40,310 nucleotides of DNA from a virus. Positions within the stretch are counted from its first letter, which is position 1. Each line of letters begins with the position of its first letter. This document shows, in pieces, positions 4,046-39,409 of the stretch. The notes below the pieces were generated by a model. The model made no database searches. It was not told the origin of the DNA and worked only from the letters and a program-made list of their open reading frames with translations. The position numbers and the translations under genes were made by a program. The stretch spans positions 1 to 40,310 of the IMG/VR virus record IMGVR_UViG_3300045988_159991, one strand, 5' to 3'.

Positions 4046-4061
4046 AATGTGGCTAAAATGC

Positions 4062-4119
4062 TTGACTTTCAATAAGCACTTTGCTATTATAATAGTGTCA
4101 AGTTAATAAGGAGGACAAC
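4062..4119 (+). promoter_or_regulatory. Early promoter-leader cassette P1
   Basis: TTGACT (4062-4067), then N14, TGc, TATTAT (4085-4090), then the conserved leader aatagtgtcaagttaataAGGAGGacaac and the ATG at 4120. It is nearly identical to the cassette at 7882. Confidence 0.8.
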
Positions 4120-4581
4120 ATGACAACTACAGCTATAGTTAAAGATATCGCTTTTCAAGAAGCACACGCCACGAACGTAACAGTTTCGTATTCAGCCGGC
4201 GAGTTTATTTTGCCAAAATGGTTTATCAACAAAAATCTTTCACAGAACCAAGCGTACGCAGTCAGCGTTGAAGGCTGTGGGAAAGCGGTCAAAGAGACAG
4301 AGAAAGCTGTTGATATCGAATTCACTACTGATTACGGAAAAGTCTGGCTTTGGTGTCCAAAGTCAATTCTCAAAACAATCGAAGAAGTTGCAGATGAGTT
4401 GATTGCGAGTGCGAAAAAGTTCAATGATAAGATGAATAAGCGTGCTGAGCTTATCGAGAAAATGAGGGCTTTGGGCGTCAAAGGCATCAGCAATCATCAG
4501 CGAACTGAGACAATTTTTAGCAAAGCTAAAGAGCAGGGTGTCGATGTTTCTGATATTGAAAAGTGGTATTTTGATAAATAA
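4120..4581 (+). CDS. Hypothetical early protein (153 aa)
   Basis: ORF directly behind P1 with a perfect AGGAGG. No motif recognised. Confidence 0.85.
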   Translation: MTTTAIVKDIAFQEAHATNVTVSYSAGEFILPKWFINKNLSQNQAYAVSVEGCGKAVKETEKAVDIEFTTDYGKVWLWCPKSILKTIEEVADELIASAKKFNDKMNKRAELIEKMRALGVKGISNHQRTETIFSKAKEQGVDVSDIEKWYFDK

Positions 4582-4594
4582 GAAAGGACGAATT

Positions 4595-4735
4595 ATGAGA
4601 GCATCAGTTTACAGAAGATTACAAGAACAGAGAATTATAGAATTGTCAAAGCTTGCGGTTTCTGTCGGTTTACTAGTGATTTTAAGCCTAATCTTCATCA
4701 TATCGTTTGGATGTGCACTAGCTAAGTTCAACTAG
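4595..4735 (+). CDS. Small membrane protein (46 aa)
   Basis: The ATG at 4595 follows AAAGGA at 5-nt spacing. There is a C-terminal hydrophobic helix (VGLLVILSLIFIISFGCALA). The ORF-track start at 4538 overlaps the upstream gene and lacks an SD. Confidence 0.6.
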   Translation: MRASVYRRLQEQRIIELSKLAVSVGLLVILSLIFIISFGCALAKFN

Positions 4736-5021
4736 TCTCATCTAGTTCAGACGCCTCTTCTACAGTAGTAGAGGGGGCGTTTTCTTTCGGTATAAAACCG
4801 TAATCTTTAGCACTTTCGGGATAATAATCGATGAAGTCTTGATTTGGCGAGCCATCAGGATTATGAGGCTGAATTAGTTCATGAGCGTGAGCAATCGCCT
4901 CGTTAGTTAGTTGGTTATCTTGACTAATGGCGCTTATGGTTGTATTAGATGAGTTAGATATAGACTGCTTTTCATCACGTGCAATCAGCTTGTTATCTAG
5001 CGTTATTGTCCACCCAGCCAT
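4728..5021 (-). CDS. Hypothetical protein (97 aa), last gene of the chaperonin operon
   Basis: ORF with an AAAAGGGGG SD. It overlaps the upstream gene end by 29 nt. Its acidic C-terminus overlaps the convergent terminator. Confidence 0.6.
   Translation of the reverse strand: MAGWTITLDNKLIARDEKQSISNSSNTTISAISQDNQLTNEAIAHAHELIQPHNPDGSPNQDFIDYYPESAKDYGFIPKENAPSTTVEEASELDETS
4761..4798 (+). terminator. Intrinsic terminator of the P1 unit
   Basis: A 13-bp stem (acgcctcttctac / gtagagggggcgt, two G.U pairs) with a 4-nt loop, followed by tttctttc. Confidence 0.65.
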
Positions 5022-5310
5022 AGCCTGCCCCCTTTTCTATTTCACGTGAATGTTCTGCTCTAATCTGAGCGGGTGTTTTAGTGCCGACTACGCCCGATAC
5101 TTTTCTGAGAGGTAATTGATTAGCGCCCTTGAACGGATCGGTCACTTTGCCCGTGACGCCATAGCCCGGCACTAGAACTCTAATAGCTCTCTCGTTTAAG
5201 TCATCTAATCGTTTGGTGGCATTACGGATATCCATGTCCAGATAGTGAACTTTAACAGCTACTACTATCTGTAGTATGACGATAGCGATGAATGATATGG
5301 CTTCTATCAT
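4993..5310 (-). CDS. Membrane-anchored protein (105 aa)
   Basis: The ATG at 5310 lies 1 nt after the GroEL-like stop (TAAAATG). There is an N-terminal TM helix (IEAISFIAIVILQIVVAV). Confidence 0.7.
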   Translation of the reverse strand: MIEAISFIAIVILQIVVAVKVHYLDMDIRNATKRLDDLNERAIRVLVPGYGVTGKVTDPFKGANQLPLRKVSGVVGTKTPAQIRAEHSREIEKGAGYGWVDNNAR

Positions 5311-5311
5311 T

Positions 5312-6760
5312 TTAATCCAAGTCCTTTTCAAAAGGTAATGCTACTTTAATGCTGAGCAACTGCTTGACCGCACTAGCTGAATTAGCTACTGCTTCTTTAA
5401 TAGCCAAGGCACTATCTAGAACGCCTGCTTCTCTCATATCCTTAATCTCATCAGTTGTTAGATCTAAGCCTTGTTTTGGTGTGGTGCAATCATCAGAGGT
5501 GATCAGGCTGTAGATATCTTTCAGATAATTTAAGCTTTGAGAAGTGAGTGCAATATCCCTGAGTGCTGTGCCTGCGCCGTAAAGTGCGCCATGATTTTTA
5601 GCTGAAAGAACAGCACAGACGCCATCATCTATTCTTAATTTAGCTTCATGTCGTTCAGCTAAAGTATTAGCTCCGACAGAGATTTTAACTGTTTTAGATT
5701 TTAGACGCTTTTGACGGTCTTCAGGTAGCTTTTTAATATAGCTGTCAAGGTCTTGATTTAGCGAGCCATTTAGAACAGTTTCAGTGCTTGTGACTTGAGC
5801 ATTTTCAACCGTGCCTAGATATTCTTCTGAAAATTGTTCAGGCGATAGAGTAAATGGTTTACAGTTAGAATATTTTGCGACGTCTTGCAAGAACTCGTCA
5901 CGATTTTTGAAAGGCGGAGCAATAATCGAGACGTCAAGTTTGCCAGCTAGTTTATTAGAGACGATTGTTTCAAGTGCTTGACCAATGACATCAGCGATGA
6001 GAATTATTCCTTGACCAGGCTTAAGTTTAATCGCCCGCTCGAGGATCGGAATGATATCACTGTCAGTCTTGACAGTTTTGGGCAAAACTATTATGAGAGG
6101 ATTATCGTAATAGCTCTTGAAAGAGGTCAAGTCATTAGCTAAAGCGATAGTTGTTAATCCTTGACTGAAAGCAAAGCCCTCTACAATATCAACGTCAATC
6201 TGAGGCAGTTCTTGTTCAGATACGGTGATAGCACCGCCATCAGAATTAGTAACGGCTAAGTCGACGGCTTGAGCAAATCGCTCATCGCCTGTCGCCGTCA
6301 AGGCAATATTGTAATAATCTTTATCAGTCAGATCAGACGGTTTAATAGTAACTGCGTCAAGTCTCTTTAGAACATCGAAAGTGTCATGATCAATCATGCT
6401 GTTCAATTCACGTGGTGAGATGTCTTTTGAAAGAGGGCGATAGTTGTCGTAAGCAAGTTTAGTCAAGACTACTGTTAAAGTAGTGCCATCGCCAGCTTTC
6501 AGATCTGTTTTGGCACTAGCCTGACGAGCGATTGATATAGCGGCGTTTTCAATTGAATCGGACACTTGTAAACTGGCTATATTAGTAATTCCGTCGTGCG
6601 AGACGGTCGGCTCACCATATCGATTTTCAATTAAGACATTACCTGAATTAGCCCCAAAAGCACAGATAGCTGTATCGTATATCTTAGTCAGACCACTCTT
6701 TATCTTAGACGTCAAGTCGTCGCCTGTTACTACATTTCGCACTAAATTAGTTTTTGGCAT
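5312..6760 (-). CDS. groEL: GroEL-like group I chaperonin (Cpn60 family), 482 aa, lacks the GGM tail
   Basis: Matches GroEL as recalled from memory. KAGDGTTLTVVLT matches AGDGTTTATVLA. VSHDGIT matches ITKDGVS. VDIVEGFAFSQG matches LDVVEGMQFDRG. IILIADVIGQALETIV matches LIIAEDVEGEALATLV. GVLDSALAIKEA matches GILDPTKVTRSA. Confidence 0.85.
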   Translation of the reverse strand: MPKTNLVRNVVTGDDLTSKIKSGLTKIYDTAICAFGANSGNVLIENRYGEPTVSHDGITNIASLQVSDSIENAAISIARQASAKTDLKAGDGTTLTVVLTKLAYDNYRPLSKDISPRELNSMIDHDTFDVLKRLDAVTIKPSDLTDKDYYNIALTATGDERFAQAVDLAVTNSDGGAITVSEQELPQIDVDIVEGFAFSQGLTTIALANDLTSFKSYYDNPLIIVLPKTVKTDSDIIPILERAIKLKPGQGIILIADVIGQALETIVSNKLAGKLDVSIIAPPFKNRDEFLQDVAKYSNCKPFTLSPEQFSEEYLGTVENAQVTSTETVLNGSLNQDLDSYIKKLPEDRQKRLKSKTVKISVGANTLAERHEAKLRIDDGVCAVLSAKNHGALYGAGTALRDIALTSQSLNYLKDIYSLITSDDCTTPKQGLDLTTDEIKDMREAGVLDSALAIKEAVANSASAVKQLLSIKVALPFEKDLD

Positions 6761-6772
6761 CGTACACCTTTC

Positions 6773-7051
6773 TTAATTTAATTTATAGCCCATTATTTTA
6801 TTGTTCTGAATAAAGACGTAACGCTTGTCGTTAATTACGATCGGCTCGCCCGATTGGTGTGGCTGAAAATAAACTGTTGTGCCTTGTGGGCGAGTAATAG
6901 CATCCTTGCCAGAGCTTTTAATGAGAGTACCTTCTGTGATCTGCTCATACTTTTCACGAGAAAGTGTCAAGCCTGCGTCGCTTGTGGACGGCAGTTCCAC
7001 TAAAGTATAGCCAGGCGTCGGTTCTAACAATTTATCCCCCTTTTCAGTCAT
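6773..7051 (-). CDS. groES: GroES-like co-chaperonin (Cpn10 family), about 92 aa
   Basis: It sits immediately upstream of the GroEL-like gene. The pattern is Cpn10-like (LLEPTPGYTLVEL ... TEGTLIKSSG ... TVYFQP ... YVFIQNNKIMGY). The ORF-track TTG start at 7093 lies inside a hairpin, so I use the ATG at 7051, which has a weak SD. Confidence 0.65.
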   Translation of the reverse strand: MTEKGDKLLEPTPGYTLVELPSTSDAGLTLSREKYEQITEGTLIKSSGKDAITRPQGTTVYFQPHQSGEPIVINDKRYVFIQNNKIMGYKLN

Positions 7052-7074
7052 AATTACTACTGTTATTTTACTAA

Positions 7075-7102
7075 AAATGACGCTATATTGCAAGCGTCAT
7101 TT
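7075..7102 (-). terminator. Hairpin (partial terminator/attenuator) between the 168-aa gene and the groES-like gene
   Basis: A perfect 9-bp stem (aaatgacgc / gcgtcattt) with a 10-nt loop. On the minus strand it is followed by tttttag. Confidence 0.5.
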
Positions 7103-7122
7103 AGGTTGATCAGAGTGATCGG

Positions 7123-7629
7123 CTAAGCTATTTTTCCACCACCTTCTCTAATCCAGGTGTAATCGCCGGCTTTAGCTTTGACTTCCATAACGCCAAGAGC
7201 CTCGTTACCGGTTGCGCCCTTTACCACACCATTGAAAACACTGCTGTCAATAGAGACCGGGGTGTTAGCCGCGACATCAAAGTCAAGAGCGTCAGCCAGG
7301 CTGATATAGCCGTTGGTGTTCACGCCCTGAACCAGATACTGCACGTTAGCGATTGTTGCGATCGCATCAGTGAACTTGACCACCTCATCAGCGGTAAAAG
7401 TCGCAGCTATCTTTATGGTCGACATGCCTGCCGAAGCTGCTTCAGCATTGCCGCTCTTGTTACTTTTTTGAGCGATCACCTTGTCGCCAGGAACGACATC
7501 GCCGCCAATTCTACTGTAGCGATAGACTCGACCGTCAGCGGTGCGGGCGAACTTGCCTAGAACCTCCTGCTGCACATCTGACACGGCGTGAATATCACTG
7601 TTATTTAATACATTTCGTACATTTGCCAT
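7123..7629 (-). CDS. Hypothetical Ala/Val/Gly-rich protein (168 aa), possibly a decoration-like structural protein
   Basis: Good SD (AAGGAAGG). The C-terminal ALGVMEVKAKAGDYTWIREGG weakly recalls DUF2190-type capsid decoration proteins. Function is uncertain. Confidence 0.8.
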   Translation of the reverse strand: MANVRNVLNNSDIHAVSDVQQEVLGKFARTADGRVYRYSRIGGDVVPGDKVIAQKSNKSGNAEAASAGMSTIKIAATFTADEVVKFTDAIATIANVQYLVQGVNTNGYISLADALDFDVAANTPVSIDSSVFNGVVKGATGNEALGVMEVKAKAGDYTWIREGGGKIA

Positions 7630-7654
7630 AAACCTTCCTTTCGTTTATAGAATT

Positions 7655-7663
7655 ATTCTAACA
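7655..7663 (-). promoter_or_regulatory. Candidate extended -10 promoter for the leftward chaperonin operon
   Basis: The minus strand reads TGtTAGAAT about 26 nt upstream of the ATG at 7629. There is no good -35. Confidence 0.35.
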
Positions 7664-7770
7664 GAGAAAGTAGCTGATCGGCTGGTCAAGCTGTTTTTAT
7701 ATGGGAGCATTGATTGTAGTTTTGTCAATATAAAAAGCACTAGCAACGAGATATGAAGCTTGAGGACAAC

Positions 7771-7878: not shown

Positions 7879-7881
7879 GTC

Positions 7882-7939
7882 TTGCTTTTCAATAAGCACT
7901 TTGCTACTATAATAGTGTCAAGTTAATAAGGAGGACAGC
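7882..7939 (+). promoter_or_regulatory. Early promoter-leader cassette P2
   Basis: TTGCTT, then N14, TGc, TACTAT, then aatagtgtcaagttaataAGGAGGacagc and the ATG at 7940. Confidence 0.75.
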
Positions 7940-8698
7940 ATGACAGAAGTAGTAGATATTAAGAAAGCTATCAGAAGCTATCTGAGCAGCAATATTAAGA
8001 AGCAGATGGCGATCGAGAATAGGATTATCGGTCATTATCTGGACAGAAATGCGTGCTATATCAGCGACGTAGCGATTATCAAATACTATTTAGCTGATGA
8101 TCCTGATGTAGAAGAGATTTGGCAACTTTTTGATATTAGAGATACAAAGCAGAATAGAGAAGAGTTTTATCAGATGCTACTCGATTGTCTTGACAAGCGA
8201 AGAATTGCTGTCAAAGTATGGCGCAAGCGTAACAACAGTAGTGCATTTATGAACGATTATGATGTTGAGCTTGGCGTCTTCTATCTGATGTATCAAGATC
8301 CAAGACATGCGCTATCAGACGAATACGCGATTGTTCGTAAAGAGATGGTCAAGAATGCTATGACTAAAGTTTTCTTTAGTCACAAGCTATATCAGACTAG
8401 ACAAGATATTCTTAAACGTGTCGAGAAAGTAGCTGTTGAGGATAAAGACTGGGATAAGAATCCCGGCATAAAAGCAACGGGTGAGTTGCAAGATATCTCT
8501 AAAGAGGTAGTTGATGCTGTATTGGACACGTTAAAGCTGACTATGCACGATATCATTTACGAAGCAGTCGGTTTAGGCTGGTTTGAAAGCAAAGACTCTC
8601 TTATAATTCGAGACATGAGCTGGGTAGCTTACGAGATTGTTGAGAAGTTGGCTATCGAGGCTAGGCTTGGCGCATCGGATTATCTGTACTACAGATAA
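7940..8698 (+). CDS. Hypothetical early protein (252 aa)
   Basis: ORF directly behind P2. No motif recognised. Confidence 0.85.
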   Translation: MTEVVDIKKAIRSYLSSNIKKQMAIENRIIGHYLDRNACYISDVAIIKYYLADDPDVEEIWQLFDIRDTKQNREEFYQMLLDCLDKRRIAVKVWRKRNNSSAFMNDYDVELGVFYLMYQDPRHALSDEYAIVRKEMVKNAMTKVFFSHKLYQTRQDILKRVEKVAVEDKDWDKNPGIKATGELQDISKEVVDAVLDTLKLTMHDIIYEAVGLGWFESKDSLIIRDMSWVAYEIVEKLAIEARLGASDYLYYR

Positions 8699-10261: not shown

Positions 10262-10301
10262 TTACGTTGTAAATAAAGTCATGATCGCATAAGTATACCG
10301 C

Positions 10302-10356
10302 TTGACATATTCAAAGCACTATGAGACAATAATAATGTCAAAGAAAGGAGGACAAC
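10302..10356 (+). promoter_or_regulatory. Early/middle promoter-leader cassette P3
   Basis: TTGACA, then N14, TGa, GACAAT, then aataatgtcaaagaaAGGAGGacaac and the ATG at 10357. Confidence 0.7.
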
Positions 10357-10599
10357 ATGAACGACGACAACGGTAACGAGATCAAGGGATTGGCAGTAGC
10401 CTATGATGGTTGCCATAAGATTTACATCTGTGAGACTGAGGCTGATATCGATCGGATGAAGAAGTTAAACTATCAGATCCACGATATGAGTGAGCTAGAG
10501 GATATCTACAACAGGTCTTGTAGTCTGAGGTTTATCAACAGCGCAGATCTGAAGAAGTGCTTTGTAGCACAAAGGTTAGATGACGACGATGAGTACTAA
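10357..10599 (+). CDS. Hypothetical acidic protein (80 aa)
   Basis: ORF directly behind P3 with AGGAGG. Confidence 0.85.
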   Translation: MNDDNGNEIKGLAVAYDGCHKIYICETEADIDRMKKLNYQIHDMSELEDIYNRSCSLRFINSADLKKCFVAQRLDDDDEY

Positions 10600-13382: not shown

Positions 13383-13391
13383 GCATACCAC

Positions 13392-13446
13392 TTGACTTTC
13401 TATAAGCACTATGAGATACTAATAGTGTCAAAGAAAGGAGGACAAC
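13392..13446 (+). promoter_or_regulatory. Early/middle promoter-leader cassette P4
   Basis: TTGACT, then N14, TGa, GATACT, then aatagtgtcaaagaaAGGAGGacaac and the ATG at 13447. Confidence 0.7.
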
Positions 13447-13617
13447 ATGAACGAAGCAAGCCAGCGTAAGTATCACTGGCGCAACGGTCGAGTGATAATT
13501 GAGCGAGAGATTATCGACGACCATAACGATAAAAGCATTGCGATAGGCTTAGGGATAGTACTTCTATTATTCTTACAACTAGCAATACATGCTTTTGGAG
13601 CATTACTCATAGGATAA
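13447..13617 (+). CDS. Small membrane protein (56 aa), absent from the ORF track
   Basis: Translated by hand: MNEASQRKYHWRNGRVIIEREIIDDHNDKSIAIGLGIVLLLFLQLAIHAFGALLIG. It occupies the same position behind the cassette RBS as the other three first genes. Confidence 0.75.
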   Translation: MNEASQRKYHWRNGRVIIEREIIDDHNDKSIAIGLGIVLLLFLQLAIHAFGALLIG

Positions 13618-14644: not shown

Positions 14645-14952
14645 TTGATGAAGAGGTTATTGCTACAACAACAGCGTGTGTAGACTTGGGACAGCTTGCA
14701 AAAGCGGTTGCGGCTGTCTGTGCAATGATTGAAGCGGTTATCGAGCGACATGACGATACATCGACAAGTTTTAACGATGAGATACTTGCGCTAGGCAATG
14801 AAATGAAAGTTCATGCCGGCCATATCTACAATGTGGCAATCGAGTTCAGTGATGACGTCTCGCTTACAACTAAGATTAGGATTAAGTCTGAAATTGACAA
14901 GCTGGATAACCTCATCGATGCGTATGAGCAGGTTCAGAAGAAGTCTAAATAA
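14641..14952 (+). CDS. Hypothetical helical protein A1 (103 aa), paralogue of 15725..16048
   Basis: Shared blocks include KAVxxVCAMxEAxIExxDDxST, LGNEMKxHA and TTKIxIKSEIDKLDxLIDAxEQVQKK. Confidence 0.85.
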   Translation: MIDEEVIATTTACVDLGQLAKAVAAVCAMIEAVIERHDDTSTSFNDEILALGNEMKVHAGHIYNVAIEFSDDVSLTTKIRIKSEIDKLDNLIDAYEQVQKKSK

Positions 14953-15557: not shown

Positions 15558-15732
15558 AAGACAATTTGACCTCATGGAGTTTATGGGCAATGCCTGTATG
15601 GCGACACTTGCGCTGGCACTCATTTACGGGTTAGTTGCCCATGCCTTCTTCATAACTGATGATGCGTTAAGAGAGAGGCAAAAGAAGATAGACGGTTGTT
15701 GCGCCCAGTGTAAGGAGGACAACAATGAGTGA
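15538..15732 (+). CDS. Small membrane protein C1 (64 aa, or 62 aa from the ATG at 15544) with a C-terminal DALRERQKKIDGCCAQCK module
   Basis: TM helix ACMATLALALIYGLVAHAFFI. The C-terminal module is repeated in 16393..16548. Confidence 0.7.
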   Translation: MAMTKTKRQFDLMEFMGNACMATLALALIYGLVAHAFFITDDALRERQKKIDGCCAQCKEDNNE

Positions 15733-16048
15733 AGAAATTACCAGAACAGCAACGATAACGGTAAACTTAAGTCAATTTACTAAGGCGGTCATGACTGTCT
15801 GCGCGATGGTCGAGGCGGCTATCGAGCAGTATGACGATGCGTCGACTGGTTTTAACGAGGGGATACTTGTGCTAGGCAATGAAATGAAGACTCATGCCGA
15901 CTATATCTACAACGCAGCAATCGAGTCTAGTAAGACCATTCAACTTACGACTAAGATTAGTATCAAGTCTGAGATTGACAAGCTAGACAGCCTCATAGAT
16001 GCGTTTGAGCAGGTTCAGAAGAAGCAGTCGAGTGATGATAATTCATAA
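15725..16048 (+). CDS. Hypothetical helical protein A2 (107 aa), paralogue of 14641..14952
   Basis: SD AAGGAGG. High similarity to A1 at both protein and DNA level. Confidence 0.85.
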   Translation: MSEEITRTATITVNLSQFTKAVMTVCAMVEAAIEQYDDASTGFNEGILVLGNEMKTHADYIYNAAIESSKTIQLTTKISIKSEIDKLDSLIDAFEQVQKKQSSDDNS

Positions 16049-16403: not shown

Positions 16404-16548
16404 CAACAATGTGCCTCATTTTATCTGTGATGGTGCGTCGGTGACCCGTCTCGGCGATGCTCTAAGAGAGAGGCAAAAGAAGATAGACGGTTGTTGCGCT
16501 CAGTGTAAAGATTTAAGTAATAAGAAAGGAGTAAACAATGAAAAGTAA
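16393..16548 (+). CDS. Small protein C2 (51 aa), absent from the ORF track, shares the CCAQC module with C1
   Basis: Translated by hand: MKIDNNVPHFICDGASVTRLGDALRERQKKIDGCCAQCKDLSNKKGVNNEK. SD AAGGAG at 7 nt. Confidence 0.65.
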   Translation: MKIDNNVPHFICDGASVTRLGDALRERQKKIDGCCAQCKDLSNKKGVNNEK

Positions 16549-17162: not shown

Positions 17163-17762
17163 ATGGCAAAGTATAGGTTGCTAAAGAATTGGCTTGGCGT
17201 CAAAGCCGGCACTATCTGCGAGACTAACGAGGATGGGTTTGCGGAACTAAAAGCTGACGATGGGTGTATTGTTGCGACCCTCAGTACTAAAGCCGATTGG
17301 TTTGGCGAGTATTTTGAGGAAGTAGGCGATGAATACAAGCGTTGGCGAGCCGACAGGGGCGGTGACTACTATTGCGTCGATAGTGATGGCTCACTGGCAA
17401 CGTATGGGGAATATAACGACAATACTGATAATAGCCTCTATAAAATAGGTAACTATTTTAAGACCGGAGAAGAAGCAAAGCGATGGCGAAACTACATGGT
17501 TGCCTTGCAGACTATCAAGGATGACGCCAAGGGTTTTGCGCCCGACTGGAGTGATAGAGGCGAGTGTAAACATTTTGTCGTGCACGACCACTGTAGCAGT
17601 GCTCTTACTACGGACTATACTAGCACGCTGAACTTCGGCGTTCCCGCCTGCTTTGCCACCGAAGACGACGCTAGAGCGTCTATTGAGAAGCATCGCAAAG
17701 AGTGGCTCACCGTGCTAGGCGTAAAGGGGGGGGGTGACAGCGATGATATGTGTAAGAAATGA
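17163..17762 (+). CDS. Hypothetical protein B2 (199 aa), paralogue of 14964..15557
   Basis: SD AAAGGAG. It has the shared blocks listed for B1. Its C-terminus is encoded partly by a G9 run. Confidence 0.85.
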   Translation: MAKYRLLKNWLGVKAGTICETNEDGFAELKADDGCIVATLSTKADWFGEYFEEVGDEYKRWRADRGGDYYCVDSDGSLATYGEYNDNTDNSLYKIGNYFKTGEEAKRWRNYMVALQTIKDDAKGFAPDWSDRGECKHFVVHDHCSSALTTDYTSTLNFGVPACFATEDDARASIEKHRKEWLTVLGVKGGGDSDDMCKK

Positions 17763-18783
17763 AGTTCCGAAAAAAGCAACCTTGGACGACTATGTCAAAA
17801 GAAACCTAGTCAAATGCCGTCGTGATGATGAGCGTGGCTTGAACGTTTACGTTTACACTGTTCACACCCAGATAAACCGCTTTTGGAATTACGCAACCTT
17901 AGCCGCTAGAGGAATTGTCTACGACGATAAAGGCAGACTTATTCAGCGTTGTTTGCCAAAGTTCTTTAACTATAACGAGCCCGACGGAATTGCCATGGCA
18001 GAACATTATAAAATTGTCCGCCCGACAATTCAGGAGAAACTAGACGGCTCACTGATAAAAGTGACCAACGACCAAGAGTATGGGCTAGTTGTTACCTCAA
18101 AAGGTAGCTTTGACAGTGAGCAGGTCAAGATGGCAAATAAGCTTTTGGAAGACAAGCGTAGACTATGGCAGTTCGAGCCTGGACTAACTTATCACTTTGA
18201 GCTTGTGTCACCTAAGAACAAGATAGTAGTTCCTTACAGGGACACCGAGCTTGTTCTGTTTTGTGTCATAAAAAACGACAGTGGCGTCGAATTAGACCTA
18301 AACGACCGACGGTTCATCAAGTTTACCAAGCCACTCACTTATGATGTTAGGGTTCTTGATGACGTCAACAGCCTCAATGCTCACGGCTTACATGAAGGCG
18401 TGGTAGCCAACTTTACTTATTATCGGTTGAAGTTCAAGACCGACGAGTACCTGAGATTGCACCGCCTCGTGACCGACTTGACGCCAAAAAGGGTTTGGGA
18501 AGCGTTGTCCATCGGGCAAGAGATAGACCGTCTTTGTGTGCCTGAAGAGTTTATCAACTGGCTGGATAGGACAGAGGAGCAGCTAAAGGGGAAATATCAC
18601 GATTTATCATCTGATGTCGCCATGGCTATCCTCTATTGTAGGGATATGACTAACAAGGAGGTAGCTACCTGCCCGAACCCATTTATTAGAAACCATAAGA
18701 GTTACGTTTTAGCTTATCGTTCAGGCAAAGACGTACCACAGATGATGTGGCAAGCTATTAAACCGAAAGGAGGAGTGAAATGA
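17743..18783 (+). CDS. rnlA: T4 Rnl1-type RNA ligase
   Basis: ARGIVYD, PKFFNYNE, IQEKLDGSLIKV (KxDGSL adenylylation motif), SKGSFDSEQVKMAN and HFELVSPKNKIVVPY parallel T4 Rnl1 (recalled from memory: CRGIMFE, EKFFNLNE, TKEDGSLV, SKGSIKSEQ, NFEFVAPTNRIVLAY). I use the ATG at 17743 after the G-rich SD. Confidence 0.85.
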   Translation: MICVRNEVPKKATLDDYVKRNLVKCRRDDERGLNVYVYTVHTQINRFWNYATLAARGIVYDDKGRLIQRCLPKFFNYNEPDGIAMAEHYKIVRPTIQEKLDGSLIKVTNDQEYGLVVTSKGSFDSEQVKMANKLLEDKRRLWQFEPGLTYHFELVSPKNKIVVPYRDTELVLFCVIKNDSGVELDLNDRRFIKFTKPLTYDVRVLDDVNSLNAHGLHEGVVANFTYYRLKFKTDEYLRLHRLVTDLTPKRVWEALSIGQEIDRLCVPEEFINWLDRTEEQLKGKYHDLSSDVAMAILYCRDMTNKEVATCPNPFIRNHKSYVLAYRSGKDVPQMMWQAIKPKGGVK

Positions 18784-19622
18784 AACTCTTACTACTAAAA
18801 GGCTTACCCGCCTCTGGTAAAACCACCTTTGCCAAGGAGCTTGTCAGAAATGACGGAAATTGGATACGGGTGAATAAAGATGATTTGCGCAACATGCTAA
18901 ATGGTGGTAAGTGGTCATCTGGGCGAGAAAGGAAAATAATTGTGTGTGAGCGAACGCTTGTCGAATTATCGCTAGACCAGAAAAAGAACGTAGTGGTGGA
19001 TGATACTAATCTGAACCCAACTCACGAGCGATATTTTAAGGGGTTAGCTGAAAGCCACAACGCCGACTTTGAGATAAAGGAGTTTGATACACCGCTAGAG
19101 GAATGTATTAAGCGTGACAATGCCCGCCCCAACGGCGTCGGTGAGACGGTGATACGGAGAATGTACAATCAGTATCTTAAGCCCGCACCTGCTAAATATA
19201 CGCCAGACCCCATGTTGCAGCCCGCTATCGTTTGCGATATCGATGGCACACTGGCGCACATGCACGACAGGTCGCCGTACGACTGGAGTAAGGTAGGCAA
19301 TGACATGGTAGATATACCCATTGCTTGGCTCACCAGCATCTTGTTTAGAAGCGTCAGCGTAATTCTGGTATCAGGCAGAGATGAGAGCTGTCACAAGGAA
19401 ACTCAAGATTGGCTAGCCAAGAACGGTATCTGTTACACCAAGTTGATTATGCGAAAGGAGGGAGATAATCGACCAGATGAGGTAGTCAAAGAGGAGATAT
19501 TTAACGAGAATATCAGAGGAAGCTATAACGTCAGATTTGTCTTGGATGACCGAAATAAGGTGGTCGACATGTGGCGTCAATTAGGATTAAAATGCTTACA
19601 AGTAGCGGAAGGAGATTTTTAA
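18780..19622 (+). CDS. pseT: Polynucleotide 5'-kinase / 3'-phosphatase (T4 Pnkp type)
   Basis: P-loop GLPASGKTT. DDTNLNP. HAD phosphatase motif VCDIDGTLA. VSGR. DEVVKEEIF. C-terminal LQVAEGDF matches T4 WQVASGDF (recalled from memory). ATGA overlap with the ligase gene. Confidence 0.9.
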   Translation: MKLLLLKGLPASGKTTFAKELVRNDGNWIRVNKDDLRNMLNGGKWSSGRERKIIVCERTLVELSLDQKKNVVVDDTNLNPTHERYFKGLAESHNADFEIKEFDTPLEECIKRDNARPNGVGETVIRRMYNQYLKPAPAKYTPDPMLQPAIVCDIDGTLAHMHDRSPYDWSKVGNDMVDIPIAWLTSILFRSVSVILVSGRDESCHKETQDWLAKNGICYTKLIMRKEGDNRPDEVVKEEIFNENIRGSYNVRFVLDDRNKVVDMWRQLGLKCLQVAEGDF

Positions 19623-32533: not shown

Positions 32534-33727
32534 ATGAATGAATATTTTACTGATTTTTCTAATGAGCCACCGGGCAATATCCCCAGGGATAACCCTAACT
32601 GGATAGTTGACCAGAACCCAGGTAACTACATCGCTTTTACACCTGACCAGCATGGCTGTATCTGGATTAAGGCAGACAATAAGGGGCAAGTCTTTATCCG
32701 TTGTCGGCAATATGAGCCTGGCGCATCAGTTGTTGAGTCACTTACCAGGGTTATCGTCTGGACTAGCAATCAAAATATAGGTAGTTATGGTATTTTAGGA
32801 CACCGCTATAATAGGTCAGCCCCACAAGGTTTGACGCTAGGCTATATTCCCAGCTATGGACGATTGTCGCTGTTTCTATATGACGACACCCGGAATGAGG
32901 GGATAGCTTATCACTGGTATGACTGGTTACTAAACACACCTTATTGGGTGAGGTTTAGGTCAGATAATAATCGCCAGTACGCTAAGATATGGCGTGACGG
33001 CGAGGCTGAACCGGCCAACTGGCAGATAGATGCTGTACGTAGGTTCGGTGATAATAGTGGTGAGATAGGCTTAGTCAATTACACAGGTAGACCGGGTGAA
33101 GTAAGTGTGGCCTATACCCAGTACTCGTTCGCTACAGGCGGTGCTAGTGCACCTAGGTCACAAAACGCCATTGCCATCCAGGGCTCAGCTAGGATAGAAC
33201 GGGCTAATATTGATGTAATTAGGGGTAGGGCGGTCATAAATAAGAACATGTCTACCCAGCTATCTGGTAGGGCAGATATTCTTAAGTCGGTCGCCGCATC
33301 GATTGTCGGCAAGTCTAAGGTCGTCACGGGCGTAAACAAAGATATTCAACTTAGAGGCAAGGCTAGACTGAATAAGTATCAGACTAAGCAGATTAGCGGT
33401 AAGTCGGTTGTCAGCGTCTTTATTAAGCAGGCGTTTATCAAGGGCAGGACTAGGATACATATCCAACCGTCTCTCATACTGCTTGGAAGTGCCGTCGTTG
33501 CTAATGAAGCGACTACTACGATAAAGGGTGCATCTCGGATATATGGCGTATTCACAGCGTCTCTAAAGGGCAAGTCTGTTTTAAGACGACCACCACGACC
33601 AATGACACCACAGCACTGGCGCAACGCTGATACGCACTCACCTACCAAATGGCAAGGTGTAACCACCAAACCACAGCACTGGCGCAACGCTGATACGCAC
33701 TCACCGACCAAGTGGCAAGAACAATAA
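32534..33727 (+). CDS. Repeat-rich protein (397 aa): ConA/LamG-like N-domain (guess), ten ~14-aa xIxGxAxI repeats, duplicated Trp-containing C-terminal peptide
   Basis: Long ORF without an SD, bracketed by terminators. TGgTAAGAT lies 9 nt upstream of the ATG. Confidence 0.8.
   Translation: MNEYFTDFSNEPPGNIPRDNPNWIVDQNPGNYIAFTPDQHGCIWIKADNKGQVFIRCRQYEPGASVVESLTRVIVWTSNQNIGSYGILGHRYNRSAPQGLTLGYIPSYGRLSLFLYDDTRNEGIAYHWYDWLLNTPYWVRFRSDNNRQYAKIWRDGEAEPANWQIDAVRRFGDNSGEIGLVNYTGRPGEVSVAYTQYSFATGGASAPRSQNAIAIQGSARIERANIDVIRGRAVINKNMSTQLSGRADILKSVAASIVGKSKVVTGVNKDIQLRGKARLNKYQTKQISGKSVVSVFIKQAFIKGRTRIHIQPSLILLGSAVVANEATTTIKGASRIYGVFTASLKGKSVLRRPPRPMTPQHWRNADTHSPTKWQGVTTKPQHWRNADTHSPTKWQEQ
33607..33719 (+). 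repeat. Two 50-bp direct repeats with 63-bp period inside the CDS
   Basis: 33607-33656 and 33670-33719 differ at 2 positions, both synonymous (CCT/CCG, AAA/AAG). Each encodes PQHWRNADTHSPTKWQ. Confidence 0.9.
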
Positions 33728-33772: not shown

Positions 33773-34864
33773 CTAGGCTATCGACTTGATGCCAGTAATC
33801 ACACTGTTGCGTCGTGGCTGTCGGTGGATTAGGTTACCAAGCATTACTAACCAACCAATCTTACCGTACTGGTTGATAGGCTGCATGAAGTCACGCATCT
33901 GCAAGAACGACGGTACTTGGTCTTTGATGTCTGAATATGTACCCTCAGTTATGTTGTTCTTGTTGTTGTAGTTGTTCAGGTCTTGACCCTTTAGATTGCG
34001 GTACTCCAAGTAGTGCTCGTTAATCCAGTAGAACCGACCGTTCGGGCACTTGTCATCAGCCACTACAGGCTTGCCACGGTAGCTGATAGCATCGACACCC
34101 CAAGCACCTTTCAGAGACTGAGCTGGTACGCTAGTGCCACGTGGGGTCTTGCCATTCACACGGTTGTAACCCGTAATGGCTGTAGCGTCATAGTGCGCCT
34201 GCAAGCTGTTGTTTTTGTGCAACAAGCTTTCAAACAGACTCCAAATCTGAGAGGTGGTGAAGGCAATGTCAGGTGACTCTTGCGATGAGCCCGCCGCTGA
34301 AGCATCGTCAAACGCCTTAGAGACAAGGTCAAGAGTCATCTTGCCGGCAGCCGCTGCGGTGACGTGACCGTTAATGTTCGGCAGTTCAGCACGGCTTAAA
34401 CCTGCATAAGAAGAGGTGGCAGTACCGTCGTCGACGATAAGCCCCAATCCATCAAAGTCTTTGCCGTTACCATAGCCATACAACAGATTGCCGACACCAT
34501 CAGCTAGAGAGTTCGCCGCCTCATCCATCTTTGCACCAAGCAAGCGTACAGCCCCCTTATTGGCGGTCTCGTTGACAGACTGCTCGATACCAGGGATAAC
34601 GATGCTCTGCTCATAACCCTTGACATACCAAGTCATGCTGCGCACGTTGTTAGTGGCTGAGGTGTCAAACTCATCCATACCATCAAATGAGCCACCAGTT
34701 GTTGAGTTAGCAATCTGGATAGGCTGATTGACAGTAGTACCTCGCCATGGCTTAGGGTTAGATAACGCCCTGGCGGTAAAGATGTTGCTCTGATTGACTG
34801 TATCCACAATCGACGGCAATATCTCGTTGTAGGTAATTGACTTAATTCGTTCAGAAAATACCAT
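33773..34864 (-). CDS. Major capsid protein (HK97-fold type), 363 aa
   Basis: Strong SD (TAAGGAGAAGAA). Blocks typical of podovirus-type MCPs as recalled from memory: SYAGLSRAE, MTLDLVSKAFD, PDIAFTT...W, YRGKPVVADDKCPNGRFYWINEHYL. It is flanked by a hairpin and a terminator. Confidence 0.7.
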   Translation of the reverse strand: MVFSERIKSITYNEILPSIVDTVNQSNIFTARALSNPKPWRGTTVNQPIQIANSTTGGSFDGMDEFDTSATNNVRSMTWYVKGYEQSIVIPGIEQSVNETANKGAVRLLGAKMDEAANSLADGVGNLLYGYGNGKDFDGLGLIVDDGTATSSYAGLSRAELPNINGHVTAAAAGKMTLDLVSKAFDDASAAGSSQESPDIAFTTSQIWSLFESLLHKNNSLQAHYDATAITGYNRVNGKTPRGTSVPAQSLKGAWGVDAISYRGKPVVADDKCPNGRFYWINEHYLEYRNLKGQDLNNYNNKNNITEGTYSDIKDQVPSFLQMRDFMQPINQYGKIGWLVMLGNLIHRQPRRNSVITGIKSIA

Positions 34865-37606: not shown

Positions 37607-38539
37607 TTACCAGCTCCCTCCGCCATTGTCGCTAGGTTGATCGCCCCAGCGGTCTTCTATACCTTTATTAGCCCACAGTGAACCACCGCCAAACAAAGCT
37701 AACGGTCCATACATTTTAATAGCGTCACCAAAGTTGTTAGCCTTGGTGGCATAAAACGGCTGTTGTCGCTTTCTCGGAGTGTAGGTGTTGTTGTTGGGGG
37801 GCTTATCGGTATTGCTTCTACTAGGCTGACGCTGAGACAGATAGTTGCCTATGCTCGCCGCCTTTACTCGGGCATCAGCGGCTAACTTAGCGCGGTAGTT
37901 CTCCTGTTGCGCTTTCCACCTATCTAACGCCATCTGGTCTTGTGCTAACTGATACTTATCTCGTGCACCATACTCATTAGCCAGCAAGCCTCTATCTTGC
38001 TGGTTCATCTGGTAAGCAGAGTTGCGCTGACCAAGTAAAGTTGACCAGACGCTACGCAAAGCATCCAAGGTCTTCTCCTGGTCGCTCATCTGATTGCCAG
38101 CCACGTACTGCGTCTCCTGCATACCTCGATTAGCTAAATCAGTGTAATCCTGCAAAGTGTTGTTGTAGTTCTGACTGAGCATGTTCATGGTGTTAGCGTT
38201 ATCACCTTGCCTTGACTGCGTAATCCGTGATAACTGAGCCTGGGTCAAATTGCCGCCGTACTGCTGTCTGATAGTATCGGGCATGCGGTTGATAGTATCG
38301 TTGAGCTGGTCTACTGCGCCTCTGGCTTGCTGGTAACTAGTCCTAGCCTTATTTATCTCATCGGTGTTGAGATACCTGTCTCTGGCTGCGTTATATATGT
38401 CACCAAAGCTCTGACGCTTATCAAAGGCGTTGTTATACTTGCCATACGCCTCATCTGCCTGTTGTTGGTAGGCATTGTATTTCTGATAACTAGCGTCTGC
38501 GTTTCGGTTAGCTGATGCAATACGTCCACTAAAATCCAT
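37607..38539 (-). CDS. Q/N-rich coiled-coil virion protein (310 aa), tandem paralogue of 38582..39409
   Basis: SD TAGGAG. Shared blocks include QQYGGNLTQAQLSRI against QRFGGNLTEEELERV. It ends GGGSW. Confidence 0.85.
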   Translation of the reverse strand: MDFSGRIASANRNADASYQKYNAYQQQADEAYGKYNNAFDKRQSFGDIYNAARDRYLNTDEINKARTSYQQARGAVDQLNDTINRMPDTIRQQYGGNLTQAQLSRITQSRQGDNANTMNMLSQNYNNTLQDYTDLANRGMQETQYVAGNQMSDQEKTLDALRSVWSTLLGQRNSAYQMNQQDRGLLANEYGARDKYQLAQDQMALDRWKAQQENYRAKLAADARVKAASIGNYLSQRQPSRSNTDKPPNNNTYTPRKRQQPFYATKANNFGDAIKMYGPLALFGGGSLWANKGIEDRWGDQPSDNGGGSW

Positions 38540-38581: not shown

Positions 38582-39409
38582 CTAATAAGCCCCCGCATAA
38601 GCACCGCCTTCGTATCTTCTGAAGTATTCAGCCAGTGATAGCTCACCTGACTGGGTCTTAGCAATATCTGACCGCTTGCGGGCAGTAGCTAACATAGCAT
38701 TGTATTCACGCTCTGAACTAGCTTTGGCTCGGCTAAGCTCTGAGTTGATAGCGTTCTGGTATCGTTTAGTTCTGTTAGCCTCTATCTCTCGCTCCATCTG
38801 CATCCAGCGTTGCTTAATATTCCACCAGTCATAAGCACTCTGAACCGATTGTTGCTGGTATCTAGCCTGGGTAGCCATATCTGACCACTGCTCTTCGTTC
38901 TTAACTGCCGTATTCCAGTCATCAGCCCGCCTCTTGATACCTGACCAGTAGCTGTCACTTTGCTTATTAGTTAGCCCTAGTGCCTGATTGAAAGCTTTCT
39001 CCACCCTAGAGTGGTAATCGTTAAACTTGGTCTGGTAGCTAGCCTCGTATTGCTTAAATCGGCTGGTGAGGGCTTCTTCTTGAGGCTCTTTGACCCTCTC
39101 TAGCTCCTCTTCGGTTAGGTTGCCGCCAAAACGTTGAACAATAGTAGTACTGAGCCTATCCAGCTGGTCTTTAACTACCGCTAGTGCCTCTTTAGACTTA
39201 TCTAGGGTAGTTTTAGTGCCTGATACGTCTAAGTCTTGTTCTGATTGACGCTTGTACTGGTCATATATCGTCTGGTAATCGGGGCGTTGATTGAAAGCAA
39301 TATCATAAGCTTGCTTAGCCTGCTTGGTCTGCTCTTGTGCGGCACCGTATGCACCGTAAGTCTGGTCTACATATTGTTGAGCTTCTTGTAGCCGTCTTTG
39401 CCAATCCAT
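38582..39409 (-). CDS. Q-rich coiled-coil virion protein (275 aa), tandem paralogue of 37607..38539
   Basis: No SD. TATAAT-N6-ATG lies directly upstream (39421-39407, minus strand). It ends GGAYAGAY. Confidence 0.85.
   Translation of the reverse strand: MDWQRRLQEAQQYVDQTYGAYGAAQEQTKQAKQAYDIAFNQRPDYQTIYDQYKRQSEQDLDVSGTKTTLDKSKEALAVVKDQLDRLSTTIVQRFGGNLTEEELERVKEPQEEALTSRFKQYEASYQTKFNDYHSRVEKAFNQALGLTNKQSDSYWSGIKRRADDWNTAVKNEEQWSDMATQARYQQQSVQSAYDWWNIKQRWMQMEREIEANRTKRYQNAINSELSRAKASSEREYNAMLATARKRSDIAKTQSGELSLAEYFRRYEGGAYAGAY

Follow-up and report, generated by a model that had tools for sequence, protein, structure and literature searches.

Chaperonins encoded by bacteriophages are known in several arrangements. 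The proteins EL gp146, OBP gp246 and AR9 gp228 are GroEL homologs from genomes larger than 200 kb that need no co-chaperonin, and those of OBP and AR9 form single-ring heptamers, the state that we also infer below for the protein described here (PMC9598537). T4 gp31 and RB49 CocO are phage lids with the GroES fold, thought to fit the folding cage to a capsid protein, where T4 contributes the lid alone and uses the GroEL of its host. Complete pairs have been established in virioplankton, where 133 of 337 viral contigs with GroEL also carried a gene for a co-chaperonin, with the two genes in either order, and many were linked to podoviruses (Marine et al. 2017, PMC5649160). The Flavobacterium Elemovirus (60 kb) and the Cellulophaga phage Calle_3 (73 kb) likewise have annotated pairs. 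Here, we analyzed the IMG/VR virus record IMGVR_UViG_3300045988_159991, positions 1 to 40,310, termed the window (40,310 nucleotides in total), which encodes on its minus strand a compact Cpn60/GroEL-type group I chaperonin of 482 amino acids (aa; 5312..6760) and, directly upstream, an 85-aa Cpn10/GroES-type co-chaperonin, or lid (6773..7030). As phage GroES/GroEL pairs are already established, this locus adds a member and not a principle; what has not been reported before is that the Cpn60 is systematically compacted, yet the lid is retained. The preliminary description of the locus, made from the nucleotide letters, had placed full-length phage chaperonins mainly in very large phages, a premise that is outdated in view of the pairs in genomes of 60–73 kb and ~39 kb. 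It had also called a complete pair in a small genome unusual, of which the complete pair in a genome of ~40.3 kb stands, whereas such pairs have been known since 2017. Nevertheless, among the complete phage genomes found in this search to carry a full chaperonin system, those of this lineage are, at 38–40 kb, the smallest.

By sequence, the window phage is a member of the lineage typified by the TM7 phage DolZOral124_53_65 (MG269973; 38.8 kb, dolphin mouth), its single close relative in GenBank. The two share a Cpn60 that is 43% identical over its full length, a major capsid protein (MCP) that is 65% identical, a lid of the same family (P0124) and the gene order of a ~165-aa ORF, a ~100-aa ORF, Cpn60 and small ORFs. 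In MG269973, CQ476_27 is labelled 'chaperonin Cpn60/TCP-1 family protein' and CQ476_26 upstream of it 'hypothetical protein', the lid ORF being unannotated. Besides its origin from a dolphin and not a human mouth, MG269973 belongs to another subclade, from which that of the window differs by G88, G415A (E. coli GroEL numbering, used throughout for Cpn60) and a variable segment of the lid, located at the roof-hairpin position, that is shorter. The same arrangement of a small ORF followed by Cpn60 is present in a second deposited ~39-kb genome, MW202566 (Caudoviricetes sp., 38,956 bp, circular, from a freshwater spring). Its MCP is related (27%), a 107-aa ORF directly upstream of groEL (L059, 5695–7646) matches Pfam Cpn10 below the threshold, and its GroEL bears the HDG (K51H) and FGAxS signatures. 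This GroEL differs in its length of 541 aa, keeps the equatorial segments and is 24% identical to the window Cpn60; the compact protein may descend from a full-length ancestor of this kind. The record was deposited as 'Myoviridae sp.', and its 107-aa ORF is oddly labelled 'mhsp60'.

The virioplankton operons, Elemovirus and Calle_3 likewise combine a group I chaperonin with its own lid in medium-sized, often podovirus-like genomes, and the virioplankton lids also have divergent mobile loops (PMC5649160). Their GroELs, in contrast, are full-length (~520–545 aa) and 22–26% identical to the window Cpn60, their gene order is often reversed or interrupted, and they are marine, with genomes 1.5–1.8 times larger. 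Overall, 213 of 50,697 phage records encoded GroEL homologs. One candidate, 'Acinetobacter phage MD-2021a' (L057, CAKLQH020000021.1), was dropped as a phage chaperonin on account of its bacterial groS/groL context; the neighbouring genes encode a lipid kinase, dgkA, glpQ and a hydroxyacylglutathione hydrolase, and the record is probably a bacterial contig filed as a phage.

On profile, predicted structure and conservation, the 482-aa protein is truly a group I chaperonin. Against the Pfam family PF00118 (Cpn60_TCP1; cut-off 34.3) it scored 92.4 bits (E=3.6e-26), its residues 6–474 matched phrog_5725 'chaperonin groEL' (E=7e-73), and dozens of solved GroEL/Hsp60 chains in the PDB were retrieved with E-values from 1e-39 to 1e-25. 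These matches lie far beyond chance and agree with the preliminary description, according to which the ORF tracks GroEL. The AlphaFold2 (AF2) model, built on 31 family members with a predicted local distance difference test score (pLDDT) of 86.6, contains the equatorial, intermediate and apical domains of the three-domain fold, and Foldseek aligned it to GroEL and mitochondrial Hsp60 (mtHsp60) chains with E~1e-34 and template-modelling (TM) scores of 0.75–0.83 over ~525 alignment columns. Such a fold comparison had been proposed for both ORFs, and the two models retrieved chaperonin and co-chaperonin folds, respectively. All motifs named at the outset were found in the alignment to E. coli GroEL: AGDGTTL corresponds to D87/T89/T90, IVEGFAFSQG pairs with VVEGMQFDRG, and GVLDS pairs with GILDP (D495). 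The same alignment bears out the noted replacements of KDG by HDG (K51H) and of GGG by GAG (G415A) as well as the missing Gly-Met tail.

For residue counts, we aligned 75 members of the Cpn60 family with E. coli GroEL, the reference being identical to PDB 4PKN. G32, D52, G53, D87, T89, T90, D398, G414, G416 and D495 are invariant in 75/75 members, and the residues for ATP binding and hydrolysis are all kept in the window Cpn60. Within the apical groove formed by helices H/I, L259 and N265 are present in 75/75 members, L237 is retained as L, L234 is replaced by I/L/V and V263 is V/I, whereas Y199/Y203/F204 of GroEL have become the aliphatic L/A/L. The K51H exchange is a signature of the whole family (75/75), while G415A is limited to the subclade of the window (3/75), the same that has G88. 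Further changes of the pocket and of allosteric positions relative to cellular GroEL are T91L, P33A/V and R36G, and the allosteric salt-bridge pairs R197–E386 and D83–K327 are replaced by K/Q and R/L.

The family members are 473–502 aa long, compared with ~545 aa in cellular GroELs, and the window Cpn60 has ~66 residues fewer than E. coli GroEL. More than 80% of the members carry the deletions at the same places (108–109, 281–282, 303–305, 353–366, 429–442, 461–465 and 529–548), among them the helix K/L hairpin (353–366) and the GGM tail (529–548). The tail positions are absent in 75/75 members, which show a conserved ALPFxEDME-type ending instead; a C-terminal GGM tail is typical of group I chaperonins, though not universal. 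The inter-ring contacts of E. coli GroEL, which we take to be K105/A109/E434 and R452/E461/S463/V464, are affected throughout, with E434, E461, S463 and V464 inside deleted segments and R452 not conserved, so that double-ring contacts of the E. coli type are missing in the family (108–109, 429–442 and 461–465 deleted). Consistently, a single helix (408–421) connects the GAG motif and the β-hairpin in the AF2 model, a stretch where the alignment drops ~27 residues relative to E. coli GroEL. The ring–ring interface is thus probably lost or rebuilt, and because the segments for inter-ring contact are deleted, the protein would form a single ring or a weaker or different ring–ring interface. Accepted members such as mtHsp60 likewise have weak double-ring contacts or none; mtHsp60 is a lid-requiring group I chaperonin able to cycle as a single ring and thus resembles the state proposed for the present system. 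Single-ring mtHsp60 structures superimpose on the Cpn60 model with TM 0.76–0.82 at ~21–22% identity in the structural alignments; mtHsp60, however, has the full length of ~550 aa and a tail of the GGM type.

The small ORF upstream is, on family profile and predicted fold, a divergent Cpn10/GroES. As a single sequence it matched the PHROG GroES family with E=0.007, and hhalign against E. coli GroES alone gave no significant match (E=0.07). At the family level, Pfam Cpn10 was matched individually by 6 of 16 members (best E=2.1e-5), and a profile of these 16 diverse members matched M. tuberculosis Cpn10 in the PDB over its full length (E=1.8e-4), besides Cpn20, M. leprae Cpn10 and Thermus GroES. 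The hhalign comparison of the lid family with the Cpn10 alignment yielded a probability of 91.5% (E=8.4e-7, 79 columns) and placed the family motif S-G-L in register with the mobile-loop G-G-I-V-L of GroES, the GroES reference having been verified. Relatives are 18–42% identical to the window lid and share the motifs PxPGYxLVxL, SGLS/T, VYFxPY and EYVFVP. The lid of a sister lineage (P0077), located upstream of its Cpn60, passes the Pfam Cpn10 threshold with 25.1 bits.

The AF2 model of the lid is a β-barrel (pLDDT 79.4, predicted TM score 0.74) with low pLDDT at residues 25–30 (A-G-L-T-L; family consensus S-G-L-S), the position of the mobile loop. The second or third mobile-loop position is polar in most lid members, as it is in 23% of viral GroES (PMC5649160). 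In the PDB, the top 16 Foldseek matches were all Cpn10/Hsp10/GroES chains (probability 1.00, TM 0.5–0.64; best human Hsp10, 4PJ1), with T4 gp31 (1G31) and quinone oxidoreductases further down. The top matches in BFVD were nearly all annotated as GroES; the best (TM 0.70, 26% identity) is a metagenomic podovirus protein of 98 aa named '10 kDa chaperonin', which in both length and identity is in line with the main clade of the lid family. Translation of the window lid probably starts at TTG 7030 (85 aa) and not at ATG 7051 (92 aa). The ATG lacks a Shine-Dalgarno sequence, and its frame reads ATG ATT GAT TAA, and hence a stop, in three close relatives. The in-frame TTG follows 5 nt after AAGGGGG/AAGGAGG, is kept in all seven close relatives and is the start picked by gene callers in relatives, and the resulting protein begins with M-L-E-P-T-P-G-Y, like the short N-terminus of canonical GroES. 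The 92-aa Cpn10-like ORF of the preliminary description thus holds with regard to its family and fold, yet not its length.

Both genes are tightly associated across the lineage. Across the 47 related loci examined, which derive almost entirely from phage contigs of ~36–40 kb from oral metagenomes, the small ORF was always located upstream of Cpn60, with its end no more than ~13 nt from the Cpn60 start and often overlapping it. Ratios of nonsynonymous to synonymous substitution rates (dN/dS), determined against seven relatives with ~95% protein identity (dS 0.35–0.83), were 0.04–0.07 for Cpn60, 0.06–0.13 for the lid and 0.02–0.09 for the 168-aa gene upstream of the pair. Lid and Cpn60 are thus intact and under strong purifying selection.

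We are rather confident that the phage encodes its own group I chaperonin system, in which the 85-aa lid and the 482-aa ATPase would act as a heptameric, lid-capped machine in a probable Saccharibacteria host. Directly supported in this reading are the two proteins with their respective folds, the purifying selection and the synteny across the lineage. In the proposed cycle, Cpn60 would form heptameric rings whose apical groove binds non-native phage proteins, ATP binding would allow the lid to dock via its mobile loop, encapsulating the client, and ATP hydrolysis would time the release of the client. Like mitochondrial Hsp60/Hsp10, such a machine would probably operate with one ring, or with a different and weaker ring–ring interface. 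That the lid caps Cpn60 as a heptamer is suggested by one line of support, the conserved gene adjacency. Likely clients would be late structural proteins, i.e. the major head protein (33773..34864) or the 168-aa virion protein, where a capsid-protein client is plausible from the precedent of T4 gp23/gp31. Several points weigh against such a lid-dependent system. The phage chaperonins studied biochemically (EL, OBP and AR9) are all free of a co-chaperonin (PMC9598537), and the lid alone reaches 19.5–19.9 bits against Pfam Cpn10, under the cut-off of 21.1. With the altered pocket and allosteric residues, kinetics and cooperativity may differ greatly from cellular GroEL. The assignment to a Saccharibacteria host is indirect, and bins of metagenome-assembled genomes with related phage-sized contigs name Atopobium/Atopobiaceae in addition to Saccharibacteria.

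A more far-reaching proposal, which we advance tentatively and hold to be clearly less probable than the chaperonin system as such, is a minimal, obligately single-ring and yet lid-dependent chaperonin made of a ~480-aa subunit and an 85–100-aa lid with a weakened mobile loop. Its subunit, devoid of the helices for inter-ring contact, of the K/L hairpin and GGM tail and of the classical salt bridges for allostery, would be confined to single rings, and the weakened mobile loop (G-L-S/T) would permit release of the lid without a trans-ring signal. A streamlined chaperonin of this kind may exist since ultrasmall, genome-reduced Saccharibacteria supply too little folding capacity for capsids. To our knowledge, the characterised phage chaperonins are lid-free, and the characterised lid-dependent ones are double-ring or mitochondrial. 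The window Cpn60 represents a natural deletion series of GroEL, in inter-ring contacts, K/L hairpin, tail and allosteric salt bridges, that still comes with a lid. If true, a compact, single-ring and lid-dependent system would provide a useful comparison for how ring–ring communication and lid release are coupled.

It is improbable that Cpn60 works alone, as the EL, OBP and AR9 proteins do, and that the GroES-like barrel of the small ORF serves a structural, assembly or other function. This notion draws on the lid-free precedents just mentioned, on the high divergence of the small ORF, individually under the Pfam cut-off, and on the GroES fold being shared with unrelated enzymes, such as the quinone oxidoreductases among the fold matches. 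Its top fold matches are, however, true Cpn10 chains and not dehydrogenase domains, the profile–profile match spans the full length of Cpn10 with the mobile-loop motif in register, and the low-confidence loop of the model lies exactly at the mobile-loop site. Moreover, the small ORF adjoins Cpn60 in 47/47 loci, in the sister lineage and in MW202566. The window Cpn60 itself falls outside the EL/OBP/AR9 type, as its lid gene is always adjacent and its matches to 6TMT (E=4.9e-19) and 6HDD (E=2.8e-10) are weaker than those to cellular GroELs (1e-39).

We give equally little credit to a lid that acts on the host GroEL in the manner of T4 gp31, with the phage Cpn60 working separately or mixed with host subunits. 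Precedents are T4 gp31 and RB49 CocO (cited in PMC9598537), and in viromes GroES-only viruses are commoner than GroEL carriers (PMC5649160). T4 brings the lid alone; the window phage supplies both parts. In this lineage, however, the lid gene never occurs without the Cpn60 gene (47 loci examined). The two genes are nearly contiguous, with a 12-nt gap in the window and an overlap in many relatives, and the phage Cpn60 keeps the helix H/I groove to which a lid would bind.

The Cpn60 clade is, as judged from its sequences, old and not a recent capture from a host. It comprises ~75 clusters at 90% identity, mostly on contigs topping out at 38–40.5 kb, and was monophyletic on a long branch in 100/100 bootstrap neighbour-joining trees. 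The window Cpn60 is 22–27% identical to cellular GroELs, which are themselves ~55% identical on average, and no cellular protein more than 29% identical to it was found among 5.8 billion clustered sequences. The placement against host groEL that the preliminary description had proposed for detecting recent capture thus gave a monophyletic clade on a long branch, and neither of the outcomes it had named as contradicting a chaperonin pair was observed, as the profile match to Cpn60 and the family-profile match to Cpn10 are significant, GDGTT and the catalytic Asp residues are intact in 75/75 members, and dN/dS is 0.04–0.13 for the two genes. A recent host groES–groEL capture or a decaying, functionless remnant, for which the several nucleotide-pocket substitutions and the ~66 missing residues could be cited, is therefore excluded by the low identity, the tree, the dN/dS ratios, the conserved catalytic residues and the deletion positions common across the family.

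The window is a complete circular assembly with the same 55 bp at both ends, resulting in a genome of 40,255 bp. It encodes the large terminase (TerL), portal, major head protein, an SU10-type adaptor and an endolysin, as well as RecT with an exonuclease and a pair of RNA ligase and polynucleotide kinase. The window phage is a small tailed, podovirus-like phage from the human mouth, which corroborates the 40-kb phage of the preliminary description. Identical copies of its lid protein are present in human oral metagenomes (PRJEB6997). A nucleotide search with positions 4700–7700 against the 50,697 phage records gave no match, relatives being found at the protein level only. Due to the membership in the TM7-phage lineage, the host is probably a member of the Saccharibacteria; a prevalent clade of ~35-kb oral phages is predicted to infect these bacteria (PMC9160773). 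Papers on oral Saccharibacteria phages, including PMC9160773, do not mention chaperonins. No tRNA genes were found in the window, hence tRNAs give no clue to the host. Human mouths commonly harbour this lineage, and its probable hosts are episymbionts with tiny cells and reduced genomes, which raises the concrete question of whether host proteostasis limits phage production. About 4% of the genome is spent on the chaperonin system, which argues for a strong selective need.

The pair is embedded in five consecutive minus-strand ORFs of 168 aa, the lid, Cpn60, ~105–112 aa and 97 aa. The 168-aa protein (7123..7629), encoded directly upstream of the lid gene, had no Pfam or PDB match, also with its family profile, and 8 of 13 members of its family matched phrog_26298 'virion structural protein' (best 7.4e-7), so that it probably is a virion structural protein. 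Its gene position is conserved in nearly all loci. On the IMG/VR contigs L044 and L046 (~36.5 kb; 473-aa Cpn60, 99–103-aa lid), other small ORFs and not the ~165-aa gene lie upstream of the pair; its link to the chaperonin genes is therefore not universal in the lineage. Downstream of Cpn60, a 105-aa membrane protein (4993..5310), which begins with a hydrophobic helix and carries a conserved PDQIR..E..YG motif towards its C-terminus, has orthologs at the same position across the lineage. The ORF extends to 5331 (~112 aa), and the protein most likely starts at ATG 5310, as gene callers chose on identical contigs. It is followed by a 97-aa acidic protein (4728..5021), whose position is conserved in close relatives. 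For both proteins, Pfam and PHROG searches gave no family match. Because the genes from the lid to the 97-aa protein are separated by +12, +1 and −29 nt, they very likely form one operon.

Between the 168-aa gene and the lid gene, a terminator- or attenuator-like hairpin with a U-run is encoded at 7073..7102 on the minus strand (free energy −12.9 kcal/mol, z=−4.97, 0/200 shuffles as stable). The hairpin is identical in 7 close relatives, and 10/10 distant relatives have a strong hairpin and T-run of unrelated sequence at the same intergenic position, usually preceding a TGnTATAAT-like (extended −10) box. In the window, a promoter-like TTGCAA N17 TAAAAT (7065..7093, minus strand), found by a consensus scan with 9/12 matches and weak on its own, overlaps the hairpin and is a candidate promoter of the chaperonin operon. 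As these hairpins are kept between them and the 168-aa gene, the chaperonin genes are probably expressed from their own promoter or by attenuated read-through, and the 168-aa gene looks like a separately terminated unit. The co-transcription proposed earlier thus very likely applies to the pair and the abutting or overlapping genes for the small membrane and acidic proteins, but is doubtful for the 168-aa gene. In distant relatives (L001, L012, L017, L022, L027, L031 and L039), all from outside the clade of the window, a stem-loop right after the ~165-aa stop codon exposes the loop ACCCUUUCUU, complementary to the lid gene's Shine-Dalgarno region (AAGAAAGGG) 100–150 nt downstream. This stem-loop may act as an anti-Shine-Dalgarno element that silences lid translation on read-through transcripts.

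Elsewhere in the window, a cassette of ~65 nt occurs four times on the plus strand (4061–4125, 7881–7945, 10301–10365 and 13391–13455; 60–94% identical); in each copy, TTGAC(T/A) and a TATAAT-like box are spaced by 17 nt and accompanied by a GGAGG Shine-Dalgarno sequence and an ATG. The cassette resembles a strong promoter and leader used repeatedly for plus-strand, probably early, genes; one copy would drive a 153-aa ORF (4120..4581) wedged between minus-strand structural genes. The RNA ligase (17734–18783; phrog_562, E=2e-56) and the polynucleotide kinase (18780–19622; phrog_505, E=2e-100) are adjacent on the plus strand, a T4-like tRNA-repair pair that suggests a host with a defence of the anticodon-nuclease type. 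Two paralogous neighbours on the minus strand within the structural block (37607–38539, 310 aa, and 38582–39409, 275 aa) both match phrog_37153, a family of unassigned function (E=1e-62 and 1e-43). A direct repeat of 264 nt (14680–14943 and 15761–16024; 78% identity) and one of 56 nt (15661–15716 and 16456–16511; 93% identity) point to a duplication of small early genes (103- and 107-aa ORFs). Finally, two tandem copies of 50 nt (33607–33719, plus strand; 96% identical, 63-nt period) lie at the 3' end of a 397-aa ORF (32534..33727) and encode a peptide repeat in its C-terminal end, immediately before the end of the convergent major head gene.

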